Source: an uncultured archaeon (lineage in GTDB: Archaea > Aenigmatarchaeota > Aenigmatarchaeia > CG10238-14). Taken from it: a stretch of 64,000 nucleotides of DNA. The notes beneath the pieces are model-generated. The model saw only the letters and a list, made by a program, of their open reading frames with translations. It had not been told where the DNA came from and searched no databases. Made by a program: the position numbers and the translations under genes. The stretch is from the NCBI GenBank assembly GCA_964392445.1, contig CAYMPD010000003.1:2573-66572 (forward strand). The letters run 5' to 3'. Shown here in pieces: positions 32,905 through 64,000 of the stretch (position 1 is the first letter of the stretch; each line of letters starts with the position of its first letter).

Positions 32905-35094
32905 GTGAATAAAATGAAAATAGACTCACTCCAAAAATATGATATACCAAACGAATTTATCGAGAAGTTCAAAGAACAAGGAATTGAAAAATTATATGAG
33001 CCACAAAAAAAATCACTGAAAAAAGGTTTGTTAGATTTCAAAAATCAAATAATCGCAGCACCAACAGCTTCAGGAAAAACACTCATCGCAACATTAGCAG
33101 CGATAAAAAAAATGAAAAAAGAGAGATCAAAAGTAATTTATCTAGTTCCACTTATTGCTTTGGCCGGTGAGAAATGGAATTACTACAGAGAATTGTTCAA
33201 GGGAACTGGGTTTCGAGTTGCCATATCTACAGGTGATCTTGACTCTACCAGTGATTGGTTAGCTAATTACGATTTAATCATCATGACCACCGAGAAATGC
33301 GATTCTTTGATGCGGCATGGTGCTAGGTGGATTAATAATGTGGGACTGATTATTGCTGACGAAATTCATTTGCTTAACGATTCTTCACGTGGCCCAACAC
33401 TTGAAATTACTTTAACAAGACTTCGTGAGACTGTTCCTAATGCTCAGATTCTTGGACTATCAGCAACTATCTCCAATGTTGATGAAATATCAGAATGGTT
33501 GGAAGCTGTGTCTGTGAAATCGGATTTTCGTCCGGTTGAACTACATGAAGGGGTATACTTTGACAACAAAATCCAGTTTTTTGGAAGGGATGATTACGAA
33601 CTTAAAGAAAGTTTGCCGCCTGAAAAAGCGATACTTGACAACACTGTGAACTTAAGGAAGCAGTCCTTATATTTTCTTTCAACACGGAGAAACACTGAAT
33701 CCCTTGCGAGAAGGTTGGGTAACTTTAACAAAAAATTATTGAAGAAAAATGAGAAGGAACAATTGGAAAAATTATCTGAGGAAATTTTAAATGTACTCGA
33801 AAAACCGACAAGACAGTGTAAAAAGTTAGCAAGATATATCAAAAATGGAATCGCTTTTCATCATGCTGGAATTCTAAATCGGCAGAAGTCTTTGATAGAG
33901 GATAATTTCCGAAAAGGTTTAATCAGATCAATCTGTGCTACTCCAACCTTGGCAATGGGAGTTTCGCTTCCGGCATTTCGCGTAATAATCCGAGATATTC
34001 AAAGATATTATTCTGGTCACGGGATGAAATACATACCTATTATTGAATACAAACAGTTTGCTGGGCGCGCAGGTAGACCAGAGTATGATGAATTTGGAGA
34101 ATCAATATTGGTTGCAAAAAGTGAAACCGATGCCCATAGACTTACTGAGACTTATATTTTTGGTGAACCCGAGGACGTTTATTCCAAACTTTCACTTGAA
34201 CCGATTCTTCGTATGCATACTCTTGCTCTTATAGCCTCAGGTTTTATCGACTCCAGAGAGGGACTAATGGAATTTTTTGAAAAAACTTTTTATGCTTACC
34301 AGTATGGCGAGATGACTGATATAGAACTCATATTAGATAAAATTCTAGAATTACTCTTCAAGTTTAAATTCCTTCAGCAAAAGAAAGACAAAATCGTCCC
34401 GACAAGAATTGGTAAGAGAGTATCAGAATTATACTTGGATCCAATAACTGCTCACCATTTCATAAAATCCCTTAGAAAAGCCAATGAGTCCACATCTTTA
34501 TTCTCTTTCATCCATACCATGGCTAACACACTAGAAATGAGGCCTTTACTTAGAATCAGAAAAAAAGATTATGATGAGATAAATGATAAAATAGTGAGCT
34601 CAGTTTTCTTGGAAAAAATACCCGAAGAGTGGGATTTGGAATATGATACTTTTATGAAAAGTGTTAAGACATCAATGTTATTCGAATTGTGGATTAACGA
34701 GGAAACCGAAGATAAAATACTTTCGAAGTTTCGAGTAGCACCAGGAGACTTATATTACAAACTGAAGAATGCTGATTGGTTGCTTTACTCTTTGAATGAA
34801 CTAACTTTGTTGTTGGGAAAGAAAAAAGTACTTGGTAAGATTCGGAAGTTGAGGGTGAGGATGAAGTATGGGGTAAGAGAGGAATTATTACCTTTGGTTA
34901 GACTCAAGAAAATAGGTAGAGTTAGGGCGAGGAGATTATATGACCATAATCTCAAATCAGTATCGGATTTAAGAAAAATACCTTTATCAAGTCTTTCAAA
35001 AATTATAGGACCTAAAATTGCTAACTCAATTAAAAAACAGTTGGGGGAAGATCATAAGGAGATTAAAGAACAAAAACAATTGACTTTGGGGTAA
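32905..35094 (+). CDS. hel308: Hel308/Ski2-type DNA helicase
   Basis: Walker A APTASGKTL; DEIH box ADEIHLLND; superfamily-2 helicase motifs; 729 aa with C-terminal HhH-like domain. Confidence 0.85.
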   Translation: MNKMKIDSLQKYDIPNEFIEKFKEQGIEKLYEPQKKSLKKGLLDFKNQIIAAPTASGKTLIATLAAIKKMKKERSKVIYLVPLIALAGEKWNYYRELFKGTGFRVAISTGDLDSTSDWLANYDLIIMTTEKCDSLMRHGARWINNVGLIIADEIHLLNDSSRGPTLEITLTRLRETVPNAQILGLSATISNVDEISEWLEAVSVKSDFRPVELHEGVYFDNKIQFFGRDDYELKESLPPEKAILDNTVNLRKQSLYFLSTRRNTESLARRLGNFNKKLLKKNEKEQLEKLSEEILNVLEKPTRQCKKLARYIKNGIAFHHAGILNRQKSLIEDNFRKGLIRSICATPTLAMGVSLPAFRVIIRDIQRYYSGHGMKYIPIIEYKQFAGRAGRPEYDEFGESILVAKSETDAHRLTETYIFGEPEDVYSKLSLEPILRMHTLALIASGFIDSREGLMEFFEKTFYAYQYGEMTDIELILDKILELLFKFKFLQQKKDKIVPTRIGKRVSELYLDPITAHHFIKSLRKANESTSLFSFIHTMANTLEMRPLLRIRKKDYDEINDKIVSSVFLEKIPEEWDLEYDTFMKSVKTSMLFELWINEETEDKILSKFRVAPGDLYYKLKNADWLLYSLNELTLLLGKKKVLGKIRKLRVRMKYGVREELLPLVRLKKIGRVRARRLYDHNLKSVSDLRKIPLSSLSKIIGPKIANSIKKQLGEDHKEIKEQKQLTLG

Positions 35095-35161
35095 TGGGCT
35101 AATTTGGCTATACTTCGAGCTTCGGGGGTTCGCGATCTGGGTTCAAATCCCAGTTACCCCA
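35088..35161 (+). tRNA. tRNA-like gene, possible tRNA-Pro(CGG) with aberrant D-arm
   Basis: Perfect 7-bp acceptor stem (ggggtaa/ttacccc); T-arm ctggg-ttcaaat-cccag; anticodon arm cgagc-ttcgggg-gttcg (anticodon CGG); D-stem forms only 2 pairs; 5' end overlaps hel308 stop codon. Confidence 0.45.
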
Positions 35162-35363
35162 CTAGAATAAAACCTACCTAAAAATACGAAAAAAAGAAAA
35201 AATCAACTTAAAGCAAAAATTGCCATACTAACAATACCAATACAACAACTAAAACAACCCAAACAATTTTGTTCTTGAGTAGTCCTTTGAAATCCATATC
35301 TACACCTTAATATCTTATTTTCGTTTCCCAGTTTATAACCTTGCTGTTACCCGAGAGAAGTAG

Positions 35364-41861: not shown

Positions 41862-41949
41862 TGCTCCCGACGGGATTCGAACCCGTGTCCTCGGCTATCT
41901 TCCAGAAGTCGAAAGGCCGATATCCTTGGCCGGACTAGACTACGGGAGC
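41862..41949 (-). tRNA. tRNA-Glu(TTC) with 13-nt intron
   Basis: Acceptor gctcccg/cgggagc; anticodon stem tcggc/gccga; loop CTTTCGA; intron ACTTCTGGAAGAT (internal cttc/gaag helix); T-arm acggg-ttcgaat-cccgt; 88 nt. Confidence 0.7.
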
Positions 41950-41954
41950 TTGAG

Positions 41955-42043
41955 TGGGCCGAACAGGATTTGAACCTGTGATTTCTGCCATTTTGATTCG
42001 AAAATCGTCAAGGCAGCGTCTTAACCAACTGGACCATCGGCCC
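41955..42043 (-). tRNA. tRNA-Val(GAC) with 15-nt intron
   Basis: Acceptor gggccga/tcggccc; anticodon stem ctgcc/ggcag; loop TTGACGA; 15-nt insert; T-arm acagg-ttcaaat-cctgt; 89 nt. Confidence 0.7.
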
Positions 42044-53970: not shown

Positions 53971-55197
53971 ATGAAATCCATATGTTTACCATGCAAGGGA
54001 AGGAACTGGTGTGGTGTTTCCAGATGCCCTGTCTTAGACAGTATGCGAGCGAAAATTAAACTTAAAGAAACAATCAAAAAACCAGAGATATTTGGTTCTA
54101 GCCCCCCAGCAACATTCATCGGTAGATTTGGTTATCCTAAAGTCAATGTAGGAATATTATTACCGTCAGAAAGAGGGGATACAAAATTAATGAACTCACC
54201 AAGAGACTGGCATAAAAACAGGATAGACATAGGTCAGGTGTTGGAATTCCGGGCATCTTTGATCAATTCCCGACAGAAAAACATTGTCGATGCGACAAAA
54301 CCAGGCAGATTTTTGGATACTGTTCAAGAGGTTGCTTTATCGTCAAAACCAGTCGACACCGAGGTTATTCTTAGGAAGATTCCCAAGTTCTCAATGAGTT
54401 TTAATTTTAATGCTTCACCCTTTGGACCTTCTGGAGATGTAAAAAAAGCGATGTTAACCGAGAACCCGAGTGTTGATAAAAGAGTCGATTATATTACTTC
54501 CGATGTTGATTTTAAAGCTACTAAGGCGATGGTCGACTTGTATGACCACGGTCAGGATGTTTATGATTTGTCGAGATTGTTGTCGGTTGGGCTTTTAGGA
54601 TTGAAAAAACAAAGGAAACTGGTCCCGACAAGATGGTCTATTACAGCCGCTGATTCGATTATTGCTGAAAATCTTCTGAAAGAGGTTAAGGATTATCCTG
54701 TGATCAATGACTATCTTCTGTTTGAGTCGAATTATATTGGTAATTACTTCGAGGTCTTGTTAATGCCTTATTCCTGGATGTTTGAACAGGTTGAAATGGC
54801 TGTTCCTGGGGGTTTATGGTCGAGAGGACTGAAAGAACCCAATGTTATCAGTGATCATGAATTCTATTGGGGAAGGAAAAAGTATGCTAAGAATGTTGCT
54901 GGTGCTTATTACTCGGGAAAGTTGGCGGTTTTGGAGTACTTGAAAAAAATTAAAAGACAGGCGACTGTTTTAATAGTCCGTGAGATAAGACCAGAATATT
55001 TCTCGGAAGTGGGTGTTTGGAAGGTTAGAGAAGCTATCCGTGAAGCCATGACCAAAAAACCCCTGAAGTTCGAGTCTTTGGAGTATGCGTTGAAGAGGAT
55101 TAATATCATGTTAGAGATTCATAGTGATACTTGGTCGAAAAAGAGTAAGATTTTGGATAATTTAAGAAATCAGAGAAGGATAGTGGATTATTTTTGA
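53971..55197 (+). CDS. NreA-like archaeal DNA-repair-associated protein with C-terminal PIP box
   Basis: 408 aa; N-terminal Cys cluster (CLPCKGRNWCGVSRC); C-terminal QRRIVDYF matches Qxx[ILM]xx[FY][FY]; size/architecture reminiscent of NreA (DUF650/651). Confidence 0.4.
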   Translation: MKSICLPCKGRNWCGVSRCPVLDSMRAKIKLKETIKKPEIFGSSPPATFIGRFGYPKVNVGILLPSERGDTKLMNSPRDWHKNRIDIGQVLEFRASLINSRQKNIVDATKPGRFLDTVQEVALSSKPVDTEVILRKIPKFSMSFNFNASPFGPSGDVKKAMLTENPSVDKRVDYITSDVDFKATKAMVDLYDHGQDVYDLSRLLSVGLLGLKKQRKLVPTRWSITAADSIIAENLLKEVKDYPVINDYLLFESNYIGNYFEVLLMPYSWMFEQVEMAVPGGLWSRGLKEPNVISDHEFYWGRKKYAKNVAGAYYSGKLAVLEYLKKIKRQATVLIVREIRPEYFSEVGVWKVREAIREAMTKKPLKFESLEYALKRINIMLEIHSDTWSKKSKILDNLRNQRRIVDYF

Positions 55198-58149: not shown

Positions 58150-59130
58150 CTAGATATAATCAACTTCTTTGATATATTTCACAATAAGTTTTACAAAAGG
58201 TTTTAGATTACCTTCATTCGCTTTGTTTAGAGCTAAAAAATACCTTCTTTTATCCCTATTTTTGATATCGATCATCGGATAACCCTTCTTCTTCAGAATA
58301 AAATTTAGTATTAGTCTTCCTGTTCTACCATTACCATCTATAAAGGGATGAATGTTTTCGAAAACAGAGTGAAAATATGCTGCTACAACAACTGGATGAT
58401 ATTTGCTTTTATTGTAACCATACCATCTCATTAGTTTTGTGAATTCTTCGTTGACTTTATCTGGTTTAGGTGGGATTACGTTTGATCCAGCGATGAAAAC
58501 TTGGACATCTCTGAAAACCCCTGCTTTTTCTTTGAGTATATTATGCATAAGTTTCTTATGGATATTTAAAATGAATTTCCTTGTGAGATTACCTTTATAA
58601 TTTATCATGTAGTCAAATGCATCTTTGTGGTTCTTAATCCAATCTATTTCCCAAAGTTCTTTTCCTTTTGGTGTGGTATTTTCGAATAACACTAATTTTG
58701 TCTCAATTAGATTTAATGTAGAACCTTCTATTGCGTTTGTGTTGTAGGTGAATTTTGTTAGGAACCATTCATAGTATTTTTCCCACCCAGCTTTTCCAAG
58801 TTTTTTAAGGTATTTGGAGTATTCTTTTTTAATTTCTTCTAATTTTCCAAGTTCTTTCTGTTTTAAGATACCCATCAAAGGATCGTTTGATTTGAGGAAG
58901 TTAGTGACTTTATTTTGGAGTTTTTTCTTGTTCTTTTTTGTTAATTTTTTTATTTCTTTCTCAGTTTTCTCGCCCTTTCCAAGATAAACTCTGATCTTCT
59001 TCCATTTTTTCCCATTTCTTATATTTTCAGTTAAATAGTGGTACTTATTCCCTTTTTTTTCAATAACCTCGTGATACATAATAATAGTTTGGGCACACTT
59101 ATTTAAATAATTATCATCAATTGTGCACAA
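58150..59130 (-). CDS. Fic/Doc family protein with intramolecular inhibitory motif
   Basis: Fic motif HPFIDGNGRTGRL; upstream TNAIEG matches (S/T)xxxE(G/N) inhibitory helix motif; 326 aa. Confidence 0.8.
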   Translation of the reverse strand: MCTIDDNYLNKCAQTIIMYHEVIEKKGNKYHYLTENIRNGKKWKKIRVYLGKGEKTEKEIKKLTKKNKKKLQNKVTNFLKSNDPLMGILKQKELGKLEEIKKEYSKYLKKLGKAGWEKYYEWFLTKFTYNTNAIEGSTLNLIETKLVLFENTTPKGKELWEIDWIKNHKDAFDYMINYKGNLTRKFILNIHKKLMHNILKEKAGVFRDVQVFIAGSNVIPPKPDKVNEEFTKLMRWYGYNKSKYHPVVVAAYFHSVFENIHPFIDGNGRTGRLILNFILKKKGYPMIDIKNRDKRRYFLALNKANEGNLKPFVKLIVKYIKEVDYI

Positions 59131-59358: not shown

Positions 59359-59631
59359 ATGGAAATTGATAAAAAGGATGAGAAAAAATCAAAAATGGAA
59401 AACAGTGAAAGTTCGAGGGAGAGATTTAAAAGACTTGCGATGGCCAGAACTAATACTGTACTTAAAAAATTAGATGTTCTTGGAAATTGTGCAAATCGAT
59501 ATGTTTATGAATACACCCAAGAAGATATACAAAAAATTTTCGATACTATTAATAAAAAGATAAAAGAAACGAAATTACTTTTTGATTCTGGTTTGGTGTC
59601 TAAGAAAAGGGAGGTTGAGTTTAAACTCTAG
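59359..59631 (+). CDS. hypothetical small protein
   Basis: 90-aa ORF, first gene of plus-strand cluster. Confidence 0.35.
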   Translation: MEIDKKDEKKSKMENSESSRERFKRLAMARTNTVLKKLDVLGNCANRYVYEYTQEDIQKIFDTINKKIKETKLLFDSGLVSKKREVEFKL

Positions 59632-59641
59632 GTTGATCAAT

Positions 59642-60223
59642 ATGGGAGATAGAATTGATTTTAGTAAGCAAAATTTATGGAGACTCCCCGATGATATTAA
59701 AAAACGTGTAGTTAAGCATAAGACCCCATCTTCAAAAGAGGAGGGTGAAATAAGTAAATGGATCGCAATAGCCTTAGCTAGATTAGATACCCATGATGAA
59801 ATGAGAGACATTGCAAAACAAATCCATCCTTCTACTGAATATAAACCTTTTAATAAAGCTATCACGGCTTACAAAAAGACTTCTGAAGATACCAAAAAAG
59901 ATGTAAGGGAAGGAAAAATTCCTATAATGAGATTAATAAGAAATGGAACTGAAAATAAAAGAATATCAAAAGAGGATCAAGAGAATTGGATTTTATATAA
60001 GAACGCGAAAAAGGTACAGGATCAATTGAATTTATTTTATAAAAATTTGAAAGTTTTTTTAGATGGGACACCCGAAGATAGAAAATATCTTAAAGAGTTT
60101 CTGAAACCTCAAAAAATCCATTATATAGCTTCTTTGTTATCCTGTATAAGGAATGAGGAACTTCTGAAATCTTTTAAAAAGCAACAGGGAATTAAATCTT
60201 TAGAGGAATTTAGGGGTGAGTAA
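59642..60223 (+). CDS. hypothetical protein (start moved to MGDRIDF…)
   Basis: About 193 aa; stop 2 nt before the GHKL ATPase gene start (coupled). Confidence 0.4.
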   Translation: MGDRIDFSKQNLWRLPDDIKKRVVKHKTPSSKEEGEISKWIAIALARLDTHDEMRDIAKQIHPSTEYKPFNKAITAYKKTSEDTKKDVREGKIPIMRLIRNGTENKRISKEDQENWILYKNAKKVQDQLNLFYKNLKVFLDGTPEDRKYLKEFLKPQKIHYIASLLSCIRNEELLKSFKKQQGIKSLEEFRGE

Positions 60224-60225
60224 AA

Positions 60226-61995
60226 ATGAGTAAAGAGTATCTCGGAAAATTGAAAATTCCCGAGGATCAAATGGATTGGGTTATAAGTCAACTGGGAAAA
60301 ACTTTCAGATATCCTTTTCATGCTTTTAGGCAATATATTGATAATGCAAAAGATTCTGTTAAAATAAGAAAAATGTACGATAATTCTTTTTCTGAAGAAG
60401 AAAAATTAATAAAAATAGAACTCATGCGTAGTAAGAATAGGGATGAAAGAAAAATAAGAATTGTGGATTTCGGGACTGGTATTACACCTAAAGAGGCTGT
60501 GTGGGAAACTCCTCAAGGAGATATAATAAGGGATGAAAAAGGAGAGAAGATTCCTTACATAAATAGTTTTAGATACATGAAAAATAATGTTGCAAATTCT
60601 GTTAAGAGGGCTCAAAAAGAAGTTACAGGAGAAAAAGCTGTAGGAATGTTGGCTTTCCTAAAATTAAATTGCAAAAAATTAAAATTCATAAGTAAAGTTT
60701 CCTCAACAGGGGAAACATATACTTATAGTATTAACGAAAATCTCGAGTGCCATTGGGAAAGGGGCGGGGATAAAAAATTCAAAGAGTCAGGGACTGAAGT
60801 TATTTTAGAAGGGATGCACGGTAAAACATTTGAAAATTATTTTAATCCTCGTAGGTTAAAACTAAATTTACGTAAAATATATCACCAGGATCTCTTGAGA
60901 GACATTATTAAAATTTCAGTAGAATATATAATCGCTGATAAAAAAGTAAAAGGAAGAGGAAGGAAGAGAGAGAGCCCTTTTTTTGAGATAAAACCAATGA
61001 AAATCACGGGTGAGCAGTTTGAGCCAACACAAATTAAGACAAAAACAGGAAAACTTGTAAGTATCAATTTAAAATTAACGGATAAACCAAGGAAAGATCC
61101 TTTCATAAGAATCAATAATAGAGGTACTGGGGGGGTTCCAGCTGAAACAGTCTTTTATAACCCAATTTGGGAGAATGAATATACCCAAGGTTTTATTGAT
61201 GTTGATTTTCTAAATTTTGCAGGTCATGACAAGAGCAGTTTTGAACAGGATAAAACTTTGGAAGAATTGGAAAATGCATTAGAAGAAAAAGTAGTCCCAA
61301 AACTTGCTGAAAATATCAGTGAAATAAAGAAGAGAAAGTCTCAAAGAAATATAATGGATACAATAGAAATTCTGAAGGTAGCCCTTTCTAGAACTATTAA
61401 AAATTTAGACATTCGGATAGAAGGTACGGTCGAGAGAACAAAAACATGTCCTCAATGTGGGAAAAAATTATCTTATAATCATAAGTTTTGTCCTGATTGC
61501 GGTTATGAATTCCCTCGAGCGACTAAACATTGTAGATTTTGTGACGAAGAAATACCTTCCAATGCTAAAACTTGCCCTAAGTGTGGTAAAAATCTGATAG
61601 AAAAAATAAAATGTAAATATTGTGGTGAATTAATACCAGAATTAAGTAGAGTCTGTCCAGAATGTGGAGAAAGGTTAAGATCTAAAAGAAAGGAACCGAA
61701 GGGCAAGACACCAGATATATTTCCTCAACCTTTAGGTCCAGAAGGTCCCCGAAGTGCTATTGATAAAGAAAATGGGCATCTAAGGGTTATTCAGATAAAC
61801 CAGGATCACAGTGATTATCAAAGGGCTCTAGAAGAGGGTTATGATAAGCTTTATATGTCCATTCTGACCTCCAAAGAAATTGCAAAATTTATGTATGGAG
61901 AGGAGAAATCTGATTATACGGAGGATCTTTTGGAAATATTTTTAGAGATATTTAATGAGTTAATAACTATAAAATCAATAGACTATAGAGAGTGA
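60226..61995 (+). CDS. MORC-like GHKL-family ATPase with four C-terminal zinc ribbons
   Basis: Bergerat-fold motifs: N-box FRQYIDNAKDS, G1 IVDFGTGI, G2 GEKAVGMLAF; C-terminal CPQCG…CPDCG, CRFCD…CPKCG, CKYCG…CPECG (4 CxxC pairs). Confidence 0.6.
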   Translation: MSKEYLGKLKIPEDQMDWVISQLGKTFRYPFHAFRQYIDNAKDSVKIRKMYDNSFSEEEKLIKIELMRSKNRDERKIRIVDFGTGITPKEAVWETPQGDIIRDEKGEKIPYINSFRYMKNNVANSVKRAQKEVTGEKAVGMLAFLKLNCKKLKFISKVSSTGETYTYSINENLECHWERGGDKKFKESGTEVILEGMHGKTFENYFNPRRLKLNLRKIYHQDLLRDIIKISVEYIIADKKVKGRGRKRESPFFEIKPMKITGEQFEPTQIKTKTGKLVSINLKLTDKPRKDPFIRINNRGTGGVPAETVFYNPIWENEYTQGFIDVDFLNFAGHDKSSFEQDKTLEELENALEEKVVPKLAENISEIKKRKSQRNIMDTIEILKVALSRTIKNLDIRIEGTVERTKTCPQCGKKLSYNHKFCPDCGYEFPRATKHCRFCDEEIPSNAKTCPKCGKNLIEKIKCKYCGELIPELSRVCPECGERLRSKRKEPKGKTPDIFPQPLGPEGPRSAIDKENGHLRVIQINQDHSDYQRALEEGYDKLYMSILTSKEIAKFMYGEEKSDYTEDLLEIFLEIFNELITIKSIDYRE

Positions 61996-62141
61996 TGCTG
62001 TATATCTTCATTAATACTATTAATTATTTTGATAGAGTAATTTATTTCCCCTCCCCTCTAATCCCTTTTAATAACTTTCTGTAATATCAACCCGAATTAA
62101 ATTACCGATCTTTTTATCTCCACACCCGAATTAATTAACTA

Positions 62142-62720
62142 ATGAAAGATGTTAATCCGTTTAAAATTGAAGAAAAAATGGTATTAGAAATTATTCGTGA
62201 TTCTTCTAAACATATGAAGGGACTGATGAAATACCTTCAAGAGATAGATGTGGATTTGAAAAGTAAGTTGAAATCAGAGATATTTAGTAAGCTCGTGGAA
62301 ATAAACAGTGCAAAAATATTTTCTAAATATCTAGGATATGAAGTCATAGCTGCAAAATCTGACAGGGACCCAGACCTATACTTTACCAAATTAGAAAAGC
62401 CTCTGGAGGTGAAAATTACAGTCACGAAAGGTACTTGGACGGGGGGCGAATTCAGTAAAAGAACTTCTCATTATTTACTTATTTCCCGTAGTCGTAATTT
62501 TGATAAATTTTTTGTAACTTTAGTTTTTTTGAAAGAGGATGAATGGGAATCCAGTATGGAAAAAGGATATAATTTCTATGGGCCACGTCTCTCTAAAAAA
62601 TATCTATATGGTAAAGATGAAAAAATTATCTTCCTGGGGGGTTTAGTAAAAGAGGAAAATAGGAAAACTCCTACATTGATTAGGGAGAGTATAAATTCTA
62701 AAAACCTATCCGAATTTTAG
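62142..62720 (+). CDS. PD-(D/E)xK nuclease-fold protein (restriction endonuclease candidate)
   Basis: GYEV…DPDLYFTKLEKPLEVKITV gives E…PD…ExK spacing; tail-to-tail with methyltransferase gene. Confidence 0.45.
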   Translation: MKDVNPFKIEEKMVLEIIRDSSKHMKGLMKYLQEIDVDLKSKLKSEIFSKLVEINSAKIFSKYLGYEVIAAKSDRDPDLYFTKLEKPLEVKITVTKGTWTGGEFSKRTSHYLLISRSRNFDKFFVTLVFLKEDEWESSMEKGYNFYGPRLSKKYLYGKDEKIIFLGGLVKEENRKTPTLIRESINSKNLSEF

Positions 62721-62724
62721 ACAC

Positions 62725-64000
62725 CTATTTCTCAAAAATTAGTACACTCTCCTTTTTAATATTCCCATAACTCGTCTTTTGCAACTCTCTTCTTATCAAC
62801 TTATCTTGCTTGAATCCCAAGTTCTTCCCAATATCAGCCAACACCTTACTATTTGGTATTTCCACAAAGTCTCCATTTACTTTGAAATGATTATTTCCTA
62901 TAATAACCGCAGCTTTACTACCTTTTTTCATAACCCTTTTCATCTCCTTAAACGAATAGAACATATCTATGAAGAATTTGTAAACCCTCAAAGCCGCATT
63001 TTTCCTTCCATTGTTAAGAAGTAATTCAACGTATTTATGAGCTAATTTTGATATTTTGAGTGGATCTTTTTCTTCATCCTCAATCATTTCCAGTAATTCT
63101 TCCTTGTCATAATTTATCCTAGGATTACCCATCATATTCTGTTCCAGATCCTCCTTGGAATCTACGAGTTTTAACATTCTCAATTGAGGATAGTCATTTT
63201 TAATATAATCCAAAGCCGTTGAATAAGGTGGAGAATTTACAATGCCATTAATTTGTCCAGGATTAATCACATCCATAGCTCTGGTGTCAGTACAGTGAGT
63301 TTCTGAAGCACCGGGTTTTATTTTCAGTAAATCATTTAATTCATGGAAAAGGAATAATCTCAAATAGATATCATTTAAACGATCTTCAAAAACACTATAA
63401 AACTCATTCTTAGTTCTTCTAGCCACATCGCTTATTGAACCAGATAAAGCTAATAAAAAGAACTCCTTAATTGGACCTTCTTTCATTTTTTTAATCAATT
63501 CTCTTGCTATTATAATCTTTTTTACAACATCTACACTATTCCTAAACTTTGCAAAGTCCGTAACATCCTTATATAATTCTTCAGCCTCTTTTTCGACTTC
63601 CTCAAACTCAATTCCATTGTTCCCTAGAGTTTCTTGTCCCCTTACGTTGGTCTCAAATATTTTTATCTTCCTTTTCAATTCAACTAAATACTCATCAATA
63701 TTTTTTTTCAATTCTTTTGGTTCAATTTTTAGAGAATTACATTTCACATTAGACATCAAAACCGATAAAGGGTTTATTTCGACTCCTCTACTATCCAATT
63801 CAATATGTGATGCTTCTAGAAGTAAAGTACCACTACCTGCGAAATTATCTAATACTACACCTTCACTCTTAGGATAAACATAATTCAATAACGCACGTAC
63901 CATTTTTGGATGGAACTTTCCCTTGTAAGGATGAATGTAGTGATTAAGATATAATGAAGGCTCTTCGCGAATAGCAAAATAGTCTTCTAGTCTTTTCCCT
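62725..64000 (-). CDS. DNA methyltransferase (N6-adenine/N4-cytosine type), 5'-partial: reading frame continues past window end
   Basis: Motif I VLDNFAGSGTLLLEA; motif IV NSPPYS; hand translation shows no stop upstream of the listed Met through position 64000. Confidence 0.7.
   Translation of the reverse strand, partial: GKRLEDYFAIREEPSLYLNHYIHPYKGKFHPKMVRALLNYVYPKSEGVVLDNFAGSGTLLLEASHIELDSRGVEINPLSVLMSNVKCNSLKIEPKELKKNIDEYLVELKRKIKIFETNVRGQETLGNNGIEFEEVEKEAEELYKDVTDFAKFRNSVDVVKKIIIARELIKKMKEGPIKEFFLLALSGSISDVARRTKNEFYSVFEDRLNDIYLRLFLFHELNDLLKIKPGASETHCTDTRAMDVINPGQINGIVNSPPYSTALDYIKNDYPQLRMLKLVDSKEDLEQNMMGNPRINYDKEELLEMIEDEEKDPLKISKLAHKYVELLLNNGRKNAALRVYKFFIDMFYSFKEMKRVMKKGSKAAVIIGNNHFKVNGDFVEIPNSKVLADIGKNLGFKQDKLIRRELQKTSYGNIKKESVLIFEK

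Follow-up and report, generated by a model that had tools for sequence, protein, structure and literature searches.

Does the operon that encodes a MORC-like ATPase at the end of a 64,000-nucleotide stretch of DNA from an uncultured archaeon (the window) belong to a defence system, and which of the genes around it would be its partners? An earlier note on this DNA had proposed a five-gene system with a Fic gene alongside, and all five reading frames were present where it had placed them. On the plus strand, gene A (ORF1, 59359..59631, 90 aa, the short form of this gene) is the first of an operon in which gene B (ORF2, 59642..60223) and gene C (ORF3, 60226..61995, 589 aa) follow, with A, B, and C overlapping or 1–10 bp apart. 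The best start of B is the ATG at 59642, in agreement with its homologues, and gives 193 aa, the approximate length proposed before. ORF4 (62142..62720, plus strand, 192 aa) is set apart from C by a 146-bp AT-rich spacer. The gene for an N6/N4 amino-DNA methyltransferase (62725..64000, minus strand), which is cut by the window edge, lies tail-to-tail with ORF4, as had been described, with 4 bp between the two. On the other side of the operon, a Fic gene (Pfam Fic, 2e-21) occupies 58150-59130 of the minus strand.

In protein C, a GHKL (Bergerat) ATP-binding domain and an S5-like transducer (60298..61245, plus strand; aa ~25-340) lead into a long helix, three zinc ribbons, and a conserved C-terminal domain. 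The protein has the three-dimensional fold that characterizes the GHKL superfamily, and its GHKL domain is followed by an S5-fold transducer, the order described for MORC proteins (Iyer 2008). Its GHKL motifs—i.e., the Asn and Asp of motif I, the DxGxG of motif II, and the glycine-rich lid of motif III—align with those of true HATPase_c_3 proteins, and residues N40, D43, D81, G83, G85, G135, and G140 were invariant in the 11 sequences compared. Chromatin compaction ATPases were the best structural matches. Compared by description only, C also resembles paraMORC1-5, which share a GHKL domain, an S5 domain, a family-specific C-terminal extension, and a restriction-modification context. An identity as a GHKL and S5-transducer ATPase of the MORC/paraMORC kind is supported, as had been claimed for ORF3. 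At the general-base site (ExxxN), an invariant Gln36 ('RQYIDN') replaces the catalytic glutamate. In most distant relatives of C this residue is Glu, and in a few it is also Gln. By analogy with mutants of other GHKL enzymes, C is predicted to bind ATP but to hydrolyse it weakly or not at all. The MORC-specific motif GhXhhpXXRhl was not found in the S5 domain of C, where the region reads 'DPFIRINNRGTGGV' in an alignment judged by eye.

A housekeeping assignment of C had been named beforehand as the result that would speak against a defence role, and profile searches did not bear it out. MutL_C, DNA_mis_repair, HSP90, and HisKA were all absent from the Pfam/NCBIfam output, and we therefore rejected an identity as housekeeping MutL, Hsp90/HtpG, or histidine kinase. 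Sequence identity to MutL, Hsp90, and histidine kinases was 10-16%, and similarity to Hsp90 was confined to ~65 residues (E ~1e-3). PADLOC and NCBIfam likewise returned no match for C, consistent with the previous view that this protein and its gene neighbours do not form a system with a name. An exact look-up of the window C protein found no entry on record.

The cysteine-rich region of C had been read as four zinc ribbons forming the C terminus, and here our results differ on both points. The 12 invariant cysteines make up six CxxC knuckles and therefore three tandem Cys4 ribbons (61438..61671, plus strand; aa ~405-482), and the structure model contained three beta-hairpin pairs in the same region, which matched Pfam DZR (8e-15) as well as Zn_Ribbon_1 and Zn_ribbon_3. 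These ribbons are a subfamily-specific insert, and other linkers occupy their position in distant relatives. A conserved domain of ~100 aa comes after them (61708..61992, plus strand; aa ~495-589; motif RS..D...IN..H.DY...Y..L..KE), and the searches made gave no family match for it. Neither DUF4263 nor any other nuclease was matched by C in Pfam, PADLOC, or NCBIfam, and no recognizable nuclease or other effector domain was found in A, B, or C with these three resources and searches of the C-terminal domain.

The window methyltransferase matched Pfam N6_N4_Mtase (8e-7; 29.7 bits against a cut-off of 26.7 bits) and PADLOC MTase_II (2.4e-24). Its motif I, DNFAGSGT, precedes motif IV, SPPY, so that the amino-methyltransferase motifs reported previously (FAGSGT, then SPPY) do occur in that order, the reverse of the order in the methyltransferases of other loci. 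The gene was also correctly thought to run off the window: its frame is open to base 63999, no in-frame stop lies upstream of the ATG at 63903, and profile matches begin 55-128 positions into the models. For ORF4, the motif behind the proposed PD-(D/E)xK assignment was present. D74, P77, D78, E89, and K91, which include the motif D74/D78...E89-x-K91, were invariant in the family (n = 9 sequences), but profile or solved-structure sequence support was not found, with no match in Pfam, NCBIfam, PADLOC, or the sequences of solved structures. On the basis of its motif and gene context only, ORF4 is a putative small PD-(D/E)xK restriction-endonuclease-like protein, and it is an optional neighbour outside the conserved operon. 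With the methyltransferase, it forms a candidate Type II-like cassette in which ORF4 would be the nuclease candidate. As in a classical Type II pair, and for these two genes only, a small D...E-x-K protein lies tail-to-tail with an amino-methyltransferase; the pairing is repeated for ORF4 homologues in L025 and a JGI contig, which converge on N6_N4 methyltransferases of 253-255 aa without A-B-C. Unlike such a pair, ORF4 matches no PADLOC restriction enzyme model and no Pfam or NCBIfam family, and its nuclease activity is predicted. The 175-aa partner of ORF4 homologues was tested and is unrelated to both B and ORF4. An exact look-up of ORF4 returned one 961-bp contig only.

We then compared the 10 distinct loci with sequence downstream of C (the window, L001, L003, L009, L013, L014, L015, L019, L020, and L044). 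In all 10, an N6/N4 DNA methyltransferase gene is present downstream of C, at most 2 kb away, and no further N6_N4 gene was called in the flanks shown (up to 10 kb). The flanking genes, some of which point to mobility or defence, differ by locus, from an integrase/RadC/HEPN-nucleotidyltransferase island (L001) and the PolD/Cdc6 core genes (L003) to an SbcCD-like pair (L009), a Schlafen/AlbA gene (L014), and Fic/SoFic (window). The association of MORC-like GHKL ATPases with restriction-modification genes, which the note had raised, is much stronger here than the window alone could show, with an adjacent methyltransferase in otherwise unrelated neighbourhoods. Four groups of these methyltransferases can be told apart, with slight similarity between them or none, even where the C proteins are close relatives; identity among groups 1-3 is only 26-30%, and the enzyme of the window has a permuted motif order. 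The C protein of L009 is the closest relative of the window protein (69% identity), yet this locus has a methyltransferase of another group and another A gene. Some methyltransferase seems to be kept at the locus although its identity changes. The 10 loci are evolutionarily not fully independent, which weighs against a methylation-linked module.

A separate nuclease-like gene stands beside the methyltransferase in 4 of the 10 loci: ORF4 in the window, a 237-aa gene in L019, a nuclease-DndB/DpdB fusion in L013, and a DUF6996/6997 protein in L044. The L019 gene, at the position equivalent to ORF4, shows distant similarity to it (hhalign E 1.3e-3, probability only 18%), and the L044 protein was tested and is unrelated to ORF4. 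Given these four cases, the methyltransferase may serve the nuclease-like gene, which counts against linkage to the module, and the lone methyltransferases at other loci could be remnants of decayed restriction-modification pairs.

Within the operon, B and C are the invariant core, while gene A exists in three unrelated forms. Short homologues of A (83-90 aa) lie immediately 5' of B in L003, L014, L015, L017, L018, and L021-L023; an unrelated protein of 321-328 aa (long A) takes this position in L001, L009, and L013; and an unrelated 54-aa protein does so in L044. Family matches of short A were weak (phrog_35258 in five of seven members, best E 1.6e-4; PDC-M34B, E 0.005), and long A, when tested, was unrelated to short A and to protein X of the DPANN loci. 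Protein B is all-helical, has no STAS domain, shows weak ParB-like similarity, and probably contains a helix-turn-helix within the N-terminal half. The Fic gene is indeed a neighbour in the window, but it is missing from all other loci and is ruled out as a component. The five-gene system with Fic therefore does not hold: ORF2 and ORF3 alone are invariant, ORF1 is swapped for unrelated genes, ORF4 is optional, and Fic is absent elsewhere.

The reading that we prefer, to which we give about an even chance, is that the A-B-C operon of this rare archaeal subfamily works with the neighbouring N6/N4 methyltransferase as a restriction-modification-type, methylation-linked defence module; we infer its role in defence. 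The methyltransferase would mark host DNA, and C would bind ATP, dimerize via its GHKL domain, and clamp DNA in the manner of MORC, MutL, and SMCHD1. The fold of C and its ATP-binding motifs are the parts of this clamp that we observed. Contacts with DNA may come from B, which is probably DNA-binding, and from the three ribbons. With Gln36 where the general base is usually a glutamate, C would hydrolyse ATP slowly or not at all and act as a switch, not as a motor. The effector step could be cleavage by the C-terminal domain of C, cleavage by the adjacent nuclease where present, or occlusion of the DNA. Three results count against this defence reading: the lack of a recognized effector domain in A, B, and C; the change of the catalytic Glu to Gln in C; and the non-orthologous methyltransferases, whose differing specificities A-B-C would have to match.

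The same features could instead describe a regulator. B and C, together with A, would then be an accessory to adjacent restriction-modification cassettes and not an effector, B binding promoter regions and C acting as an ATP-dependent switch that tunes how strongly the methyltransferase and nuclease are expressed or how active they are, for example, on establishment in a new host. The probable helix-turn-helix in B would suit this role, Gln36 suggests a switch over a motor, and a full methyltransferase and nuclease pair adjoins the operon in 4 of the 10 loci. There is also a precedent in CapK/CapS, in which a GHKL protein is paired with a DNA-binding repressor that controls an adjacent immune operon (PMC13373217). 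However, C has the GHKL and S5 architecture of DNA-manipulating ATPases, unlike the small kinase fold of CapK, which is reported to resemble anti-sigma-factor kinases (PMC13373217), and B is all-helical without a STAS domain. The methyltransferase, moreover, is convergent with the operon in 9 of the 10 loci and therefore a separate transcription unit, which leaves no downstream regulated operon, and C, with its 589 aa, three ribbons, and additional conserved domain, would be an unusually large controller. We regard a regulator as unlikely. An identity of C and B as a CapK/CapS pair was rejected, since that pair is described as an anti-sigma-factor-like kinase with a STAS repressor (PMC13373217), whereas C is a two-domain MORC/MutL-type module and B is all-helical.

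The C family is very rare, with 11 clusters among 5.8 billion proteins; none was found in 185,579 species-representative genomes or in IMG/VR viral contigs, and the matches in GenBank phages and PLSDB plasmids were to the zinc ribbons only. The wider B'-C' relatives occur broadly across Woesearchaeota, Nanoarchaeota, and Pacearchaeota, at times beside housekeeping genes (gyrBA, rpsP). A search within 4.5 kb at 14 DPANN loci of this wider family gave no methyltransferase of the N6/N4 type whose motif IV reads [DNS]PP[YFW], which counts against the methylation link; L041 has one weak methyltransferase similarity match ~4 kb from C', and no N6_N4 methyltransferase was called at the bacterial L027/L028 locus. 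This result would agree with A-B-C being a self-sufficient defence or conflict module, independent of methylation, whose only tie to restriction-modification genes would be a shared place in defence islands or joint inheritance; defence genes do cluster, and other defence-type neighbours are present beside the operon. Against this stand the methyltransferase directly adjacent to the operon in every one of the 10 loci, with no other N6_N4 gene called in the flanks shown, and its replacement at the same position by non-orthologous enzymes, even at 69% identity of C, which is hard to explain without selection. We consider a self-sufficient module quite unlikely.

Another reading takes B and C out of defence altogether, as a chromosome-organizing pair in small-genome archaea, with a MORC/SMCHD1-like compaction clamp, a ParB-like loader, and a methyltransferase that is either incidental or marks loading sites. 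It would account for the chromatin compaction ATPases among the structural matches of C, the weak ParB-like similarity of B, and the broad occurrence of relatives in Woesearchaeota, Nanoarchaeota, and Pacearchaeota, sometimes next to gyrBA or rpsP. The zinc-ribbon subfamily, however, is extremely sparse and patchy and sits in unrelated contexts, unlike a core chromosomal function, and close relatives differ in the first gene and the methyltransferase. Of the readings considered here, we find this one the hardest to believe. Returning to the methylation-linked module, its boldest version, which we hold to be very unlikely, would see B-C as the prokaryotic counterpart of eukaryotic MORC silencing. 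A barely hydrolysing clamp (Gln36), together with its helix-turn-helix partner and the ribbons, would load on DNA without the mark of the neighbouring methyltransferase and neutralize it by clamping or compaction or with a new C-terminal nuclease. This would amount to methylation-coupled immunity without a canonical restriction enzyme, and in the wider B'-C' family DPANN archaea would have an extensive, as yet uncharted system for defence or chromatin.

A place in restriction-modification systems has been predicted for prokaryotic MORC/paraMORC GHKL proteins (Iyer, Abhiman and Aravind 2008, PMC2292703). In common with MORC and paraMORC1-5, C has a GHKL domain at its N terminus, in which the ATP-binding motifs are intact, an S5-like domain, and family-specific C-terminal extensions, along with a patchy, mobile distribution and methyltransferases and restriction-fold nucleases as conserved neighbours (PMC2292703). 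In contrast to them, the superfamily II helicase partner is absent here, and its place is taken by the small, helical, helix-turn-helix-like B and a first gene that varies; an insert of three zinc ribbons precedes the C-terminal domain; the adjacent methyltransferases belong to the N6/N4 amino enzymes, while mostly cytosine-5 enzymes were reported there (PMC2292703); the motif-I Glu is Gln; and the MORC-specific S5 motif is absent by inspection. The module is probably a new, previously undescribed one of the paraMORC type, linked to restriction-modification.

The Shedu type I-D protein VcSduA, a paraMORC3-type GHKL-nuclease fusion with experimentally shown anti-phage defence, shares a GHKL ATPase with C, and its clamp-like middle domain is thought to control the C-terminal effector (PMC12137116). 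VcSduA is fused to a DUF4263 PD-(D/E)xK nuclease and encoded by a single gene without a methyltransferase, whereas C has neither DUF4263 nor a recognizable nuclease and belongs to an operon beside a methyltransferase; the E27A mutant of VcSduA, which lacks the required catalytic Glu, is dead (PMC12137116), and C naturally carries Gln there. MutL consists of GHKL, S5, a linker, and a C-terminal dimerization/endonuclease domain. C has no Pfam MutL family match, a C-terminal domain of ~95 aa with N-x2-H-x-D, and a context other than mismatch repair. The endonuclease motifs of MutL differ from this N-x2-H-x-D. To eukaryotic MORC2, MORC3, and SMCHD1, the similarity is at the level of the fold only; C is prokaryotic, has other partners, and lacks CW zinc finger, coiled-coil, and hinge domains. 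In Mza (PADLOC), a candidate defence system, MzaB is a HATPase_c_3 GHKL protein of the kind shared with C, and distant relatives of C gave very weak N-terminal MzaB matches (E 4e-5 to 8e-4).

In the literature searched, the paraMORC3/Shedu fusions were the only branch of the prokaryotic MORC-type proteins with experimental support. The module described here is a compact case, in which an invariant ATPase and partner core always lies beside some methyltransferase that keeps being exchanged, and the natural Glu-to-Gln change in C offers a ready test of switch versus motor. Restriction-modification and CRISPR-Cas are under-represented in DPANN archaea according to a recent survey (PMC12988326), and the module would give DPANN-type archaea, to which the host of the window may belong, one more defence system. 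Should the dependence prove real, it would show in prokaryotes how DNA methylation is coupled to a MORC-like clamp, a point that bears on the origin of eukaryotic MORC/SMCHD1 silencing.

The window holds two units side by side: an A-B-C operon, forming a new subfamily among paraMORC-like GHKL modules, and a Type II-like cassette of ORF4 and a methyltransferase. The three plus-strand genes of the operon encode A (59359-59631, 90 aa), B (ATG 59642 to 60223, 193 aa) and C (60226-61995, 589 aa); a longer start of B at TTG 59582 was without support from homologues. An AT-rich spacer of 146 bp separates C from ORF4 (62142-62720, plus strand, 192 aa), on which the minus-strand methyltransferase gene converges with a 4-bp gap, running from 62725 to the window edge, where, as the earlier note had it, the reading frame is still open. 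G+C is 0.30-0.33 in the final 6 kb against ~0.35 over most of the window, weak evidence at best. Upstream of the operon, and divergent from it, lies a Fic gene (58150-59130, minus strand, 326 aa; Pfam Fic, 2e-21) whose product also matches PADLOC PDC-S04 (4e-34) and SoFic (2.5e-30). This gene, once suggested as a system component, was absent from every other locus compared and thus stands as a single-gene candidate for defence in its own right; a recent survey (PMC12988326) has reported enrichment of SoFic, and of candidate defence systems, in DPANN archaea. An archaeal host is shown by the gene for the archaeal DNA-repair protein NreA (53971-55197, plus strand; Nre_N 3e-95, Nre_C 1e-36), while nothing more than the occurrence of C relatives hints at a DPANN-like lineage. 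The window also encodes two tandem ~88-nt tRNA genes on the minus strand (41862-41949 and 41955-42043; Rfam, span 41862-42043), of which ARAGORN reports the first only, as tRNA-Arg, and a tRNA-Pro (35088-35162) called by ARAGORN and not listed by the Rfam gathering-threshold search.

Protein C is a two-domain GHKL ATPase, of the structural class of MORC, MutL and Hsp90. In Pfam, its double zinc ribbons were matched at 8e-15 and HATPase_c_3 sub-threshold at 7e-5, while PADLOC and NCBIfam gave no relevant match. The GHKL motifs proposed from the sequence alone held up, the ATP-binding residues (N40, D43, D81-x-G-x-G85 and G135...G140) being invariant across the subfamily alignment, and no MutL, Hsp90 or histidine-kinase model of Pfam or NCBIfam matched, which speaks against a housekeeping identity. 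In GHKL enzymes the general base is a glutamate four positions before the motif-I asparagine. C carries an invariant glutamine here ('RQYIDN', codon 36, 60331-60333), whereas most distant relatives have glutamate ('AELIEN', 'KEYISN'); Gln36 would make ATP hydrolysis slow. Since glutamine also occurs in 4 of the 37 distant relatives checked (P0037, P0106, P0127 and P0137), the substitution may have arisen more than once in the clade. After the transducer come a 50-residue helix, three Cys4 ribbons (not the four first counted) built from twelve invariant cysteines, and a conserved domain of ~95 residues whose motif is RS..D...IN..H.DY...Y..L..KE. C would dimerise in an ATP-driven manner and clamp DNA, with predicted DNA binding by B and by the zinc ribbons.

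For the zinc-ribbon subfamily, we compared ten distinct loci that extend downstream past C: the window, L001/L002, L003-L008, L009-L012, L013, L014, L015, L019, L020 and L044-L046. B and C were adjacent in every locus with sequence reaching upstream of C (L019 and L020 start inside C). The first gene took an 83-90-aa form in the window, L003, L014, L015 and the fragments L017, L018 and L021-L023, an unrelated 321-328-aa form in L001, L009 and L013, and an unrelated 54-aa form in L044; the best matches of the short form were phrog_35258 (E 1.6e-4) and a PADLOC candidate (E 0.005), and gave no convincing family. In each of the ten loci an N6_N4 methyltransferase gene adjoined C directly or with one gene in between; it was convergent with the operon in nine and co-directional in L044, and no further N6_N4 gene was called in the flanks (up to 10 kb) shown for them. 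These enzymes form four groups: 252-268 aa with motif IV DPPY or DPPF (L001, L003, L015, L020 and L044), 428-442 aa with SPPY (L009 and L013), 301 aa with SPPY (L014 and L019), and the window's own, of at least 424 aa with motif I ahead of motif IV. Mutual identity among the first three groups is 26-30%, and the fourth has only motif I in common with them. In L009, whose C protein is the closest to that of the window (69% identity), the methyltransferase belongs to the second group and the A gene is the long form. Close relatives thus exchange A and the methyltransferase while B-C stays constant and some methyltransferase is always present. We take a neighbour that is constant but exchanged as evidence of a functional link rather than chance adjacency, although the ten loci, being related, do not count as ten independent trials; an unrelated defence module that merely co-localises is quite unlikely. 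Together, these results bear out the link with a DNA methyltransferase made in the earlier note, but not its candidate module of five genes, in that A is exchangeable and ORF4 independent, B-C being the invariant pairing.

ORF4 has eight homologues, with D74, P77, D78, E89 and K91 invariant. Those in L025 and a JGI contig converge on 253-255-aa methyltransferases and are preceded by a 175-179-aa protein with a weak PDDEXK_11 match, and A-B-C is absent from both loci. Since ORF4 homologues pair with methyltransferases without A-B-C, ORF4 is independent of the operon and behaves as the putative nuclease partner of a Type II-like pair. A different nuclease-like gene stands beside the methyltransferase in three other loci. 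The gene at the ORF4 position in L019 encodes a D...E-x-K protein of 237 aa with distant similarity to ORF4 (hhalign E 1.3e-3, probability only 18%). In L013 a fusion protein of 578 aa (L013:3894-5630, minus strand) is encoded between C and the methyltransferase. Such a fusion is unusual where the context is restriction-modification-like; its C-terminal part matches DndB/DpdB (PADLOC DpdB, 1e-23) and its N-terminal part has a putative D...E-x-K nuclease motif ('DVSIDVLAM...VFECKD', read by inspection). In L044 a 268-aa DUF6996/DUF6997 protein (L044:7596-8402, plus strand) with a putative 'IDG...VAVEAK' motif, likewise read by inspection, directly follows the methyltransferase; DUF6996 and DUF6997 may be part of a Type II restriction enzyme, and our literature search found no paper mentioning DUF6996. 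In these three loci and in the window the methyltransferase could belong simply to its own nuclease. A regulatory or accessory role of A-B-C for restriction-modification cassettes is unlikely. The methyltransferase stands without a nuclease-like gene in the other six of the ten loci, and those of L014 and L019 are 79% identical, with a nuclease-like gene in L019 only.

Full-length C is rare: a word-indexed search of 5.8 billion proteins gave only 11 clusters (46-69% identity), and an exhaustive profile search of 1.84 billion cluster representatives gave two full-length members, P0010 and the new P0024, plus a few dozen further proteins of 470-670 aa. We compared 37 of the latter and scanned ten against Pfam; all ten matched HATPase_c_3, nine of them passing the curated cut-off and P0084 reaching 19.9 bits where 25 were required. 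These relatives share with C the ATPase module, long helix and C-terminal domain, but not the zinc ribbons. Among DPANN archaea (Woesearchaeota, Nanoarchaeota and Pacearchaeota) the wider family is common, and at least one bacterium has it too, between sigma-70 and rpsP. Here too a small gene directly precedes the ATPase gene; in 12 of 14 DPANN loci these genes form one BLAST cluster, with weak matches to the B profile. In the 14 DPANN loci, no N6/N4-type methyltransferase with a [DNS]PP[YFW] motif IV was found at distances of up to 4.5 kb, one weak similarity match lying ~4 kb from C' in L041, and no N6_N4 methyltransferase was called at the bacterial locus. At L027:2320-3192 and in L028, two small genes precede the distant bacterial relative of C (P0068, 493 aa). 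The second (142 aa) matched the C-terminal half of B (hhalign E 6.5e-5, probability 64%), with weak HTH matches; the first (143 aa) ends 'RKLWKLKND', resembling the N-terminal 'LWKLPDD' conserved in B, which could reflect a shifted gene boundary or a common peptide motif. In 10 of the 14 wider-family loci (L029-L043), a protein X, typically 410-780 aa (e.g., L034:4621-6546 and L031:9533-11230), is encoded near the B'-C' pair. HTH motifs lie in the middle of X, and its conserved C-terminal region ('...LGLEGAHF...NLDYxG...FVTLND'), for which Pfam gave no match, could be a methyltransferase-like domain that has diverged. With B' and C', X may make up a larger, uncharacterised DPANN system as its third component.

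Defence-type neighbours of the zinc-ribbon subfamily include Fic/SoFic in the window and, in L001, an HEPN-nucleotidyltransferase with an integrase. In L014 the neighbour is a Schlafen/AlbA gene, encoding a Schlafen/AlbA_2 plus HATPase_c_4 protein (L014:4854-6485, plus strand). A Metallophos gene adjoining a 751-aa gene in L009 (161-3450, minus strand) looks like an SbcCD-like pair, the faint AAA_27 match of the latter having been made on a truncated copy in L012. As published precedents, MORC and paraMORC proteins have been predicted to act in restriction-modification (PMC2292703), and VcSduA is a validated GHKL-nuclease defence protein (PMC12137116). Given these precedents and neighbours, the adjoining methyltransferase and the varied contexts, a methylation-linked defence role is the best explanation for A-B-C, one to which we give about an even chance. 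What chiefly weakens this explanation is the lack of a visible nuclease in A, B or C. A chromatin function is very unlikely. In methylation-linked defence, the methyltransferase would mark host DNA as self, and an effector step of some kind would act.

The C subfamily was not found in Pfam, NCBIfam, PADLOC, PHROGs or the literature searched. GHKL/MORC-type proteins in restriction-modification contexts are a kind already known, mostly computationally, with helicases and cytosine methylases as partners; the subfamily described here has N6/N4 methyltransferases instead, and its own features are the B partner, three ribbons, an uncharacterised C-terminal domain and the motif-I glutamine.
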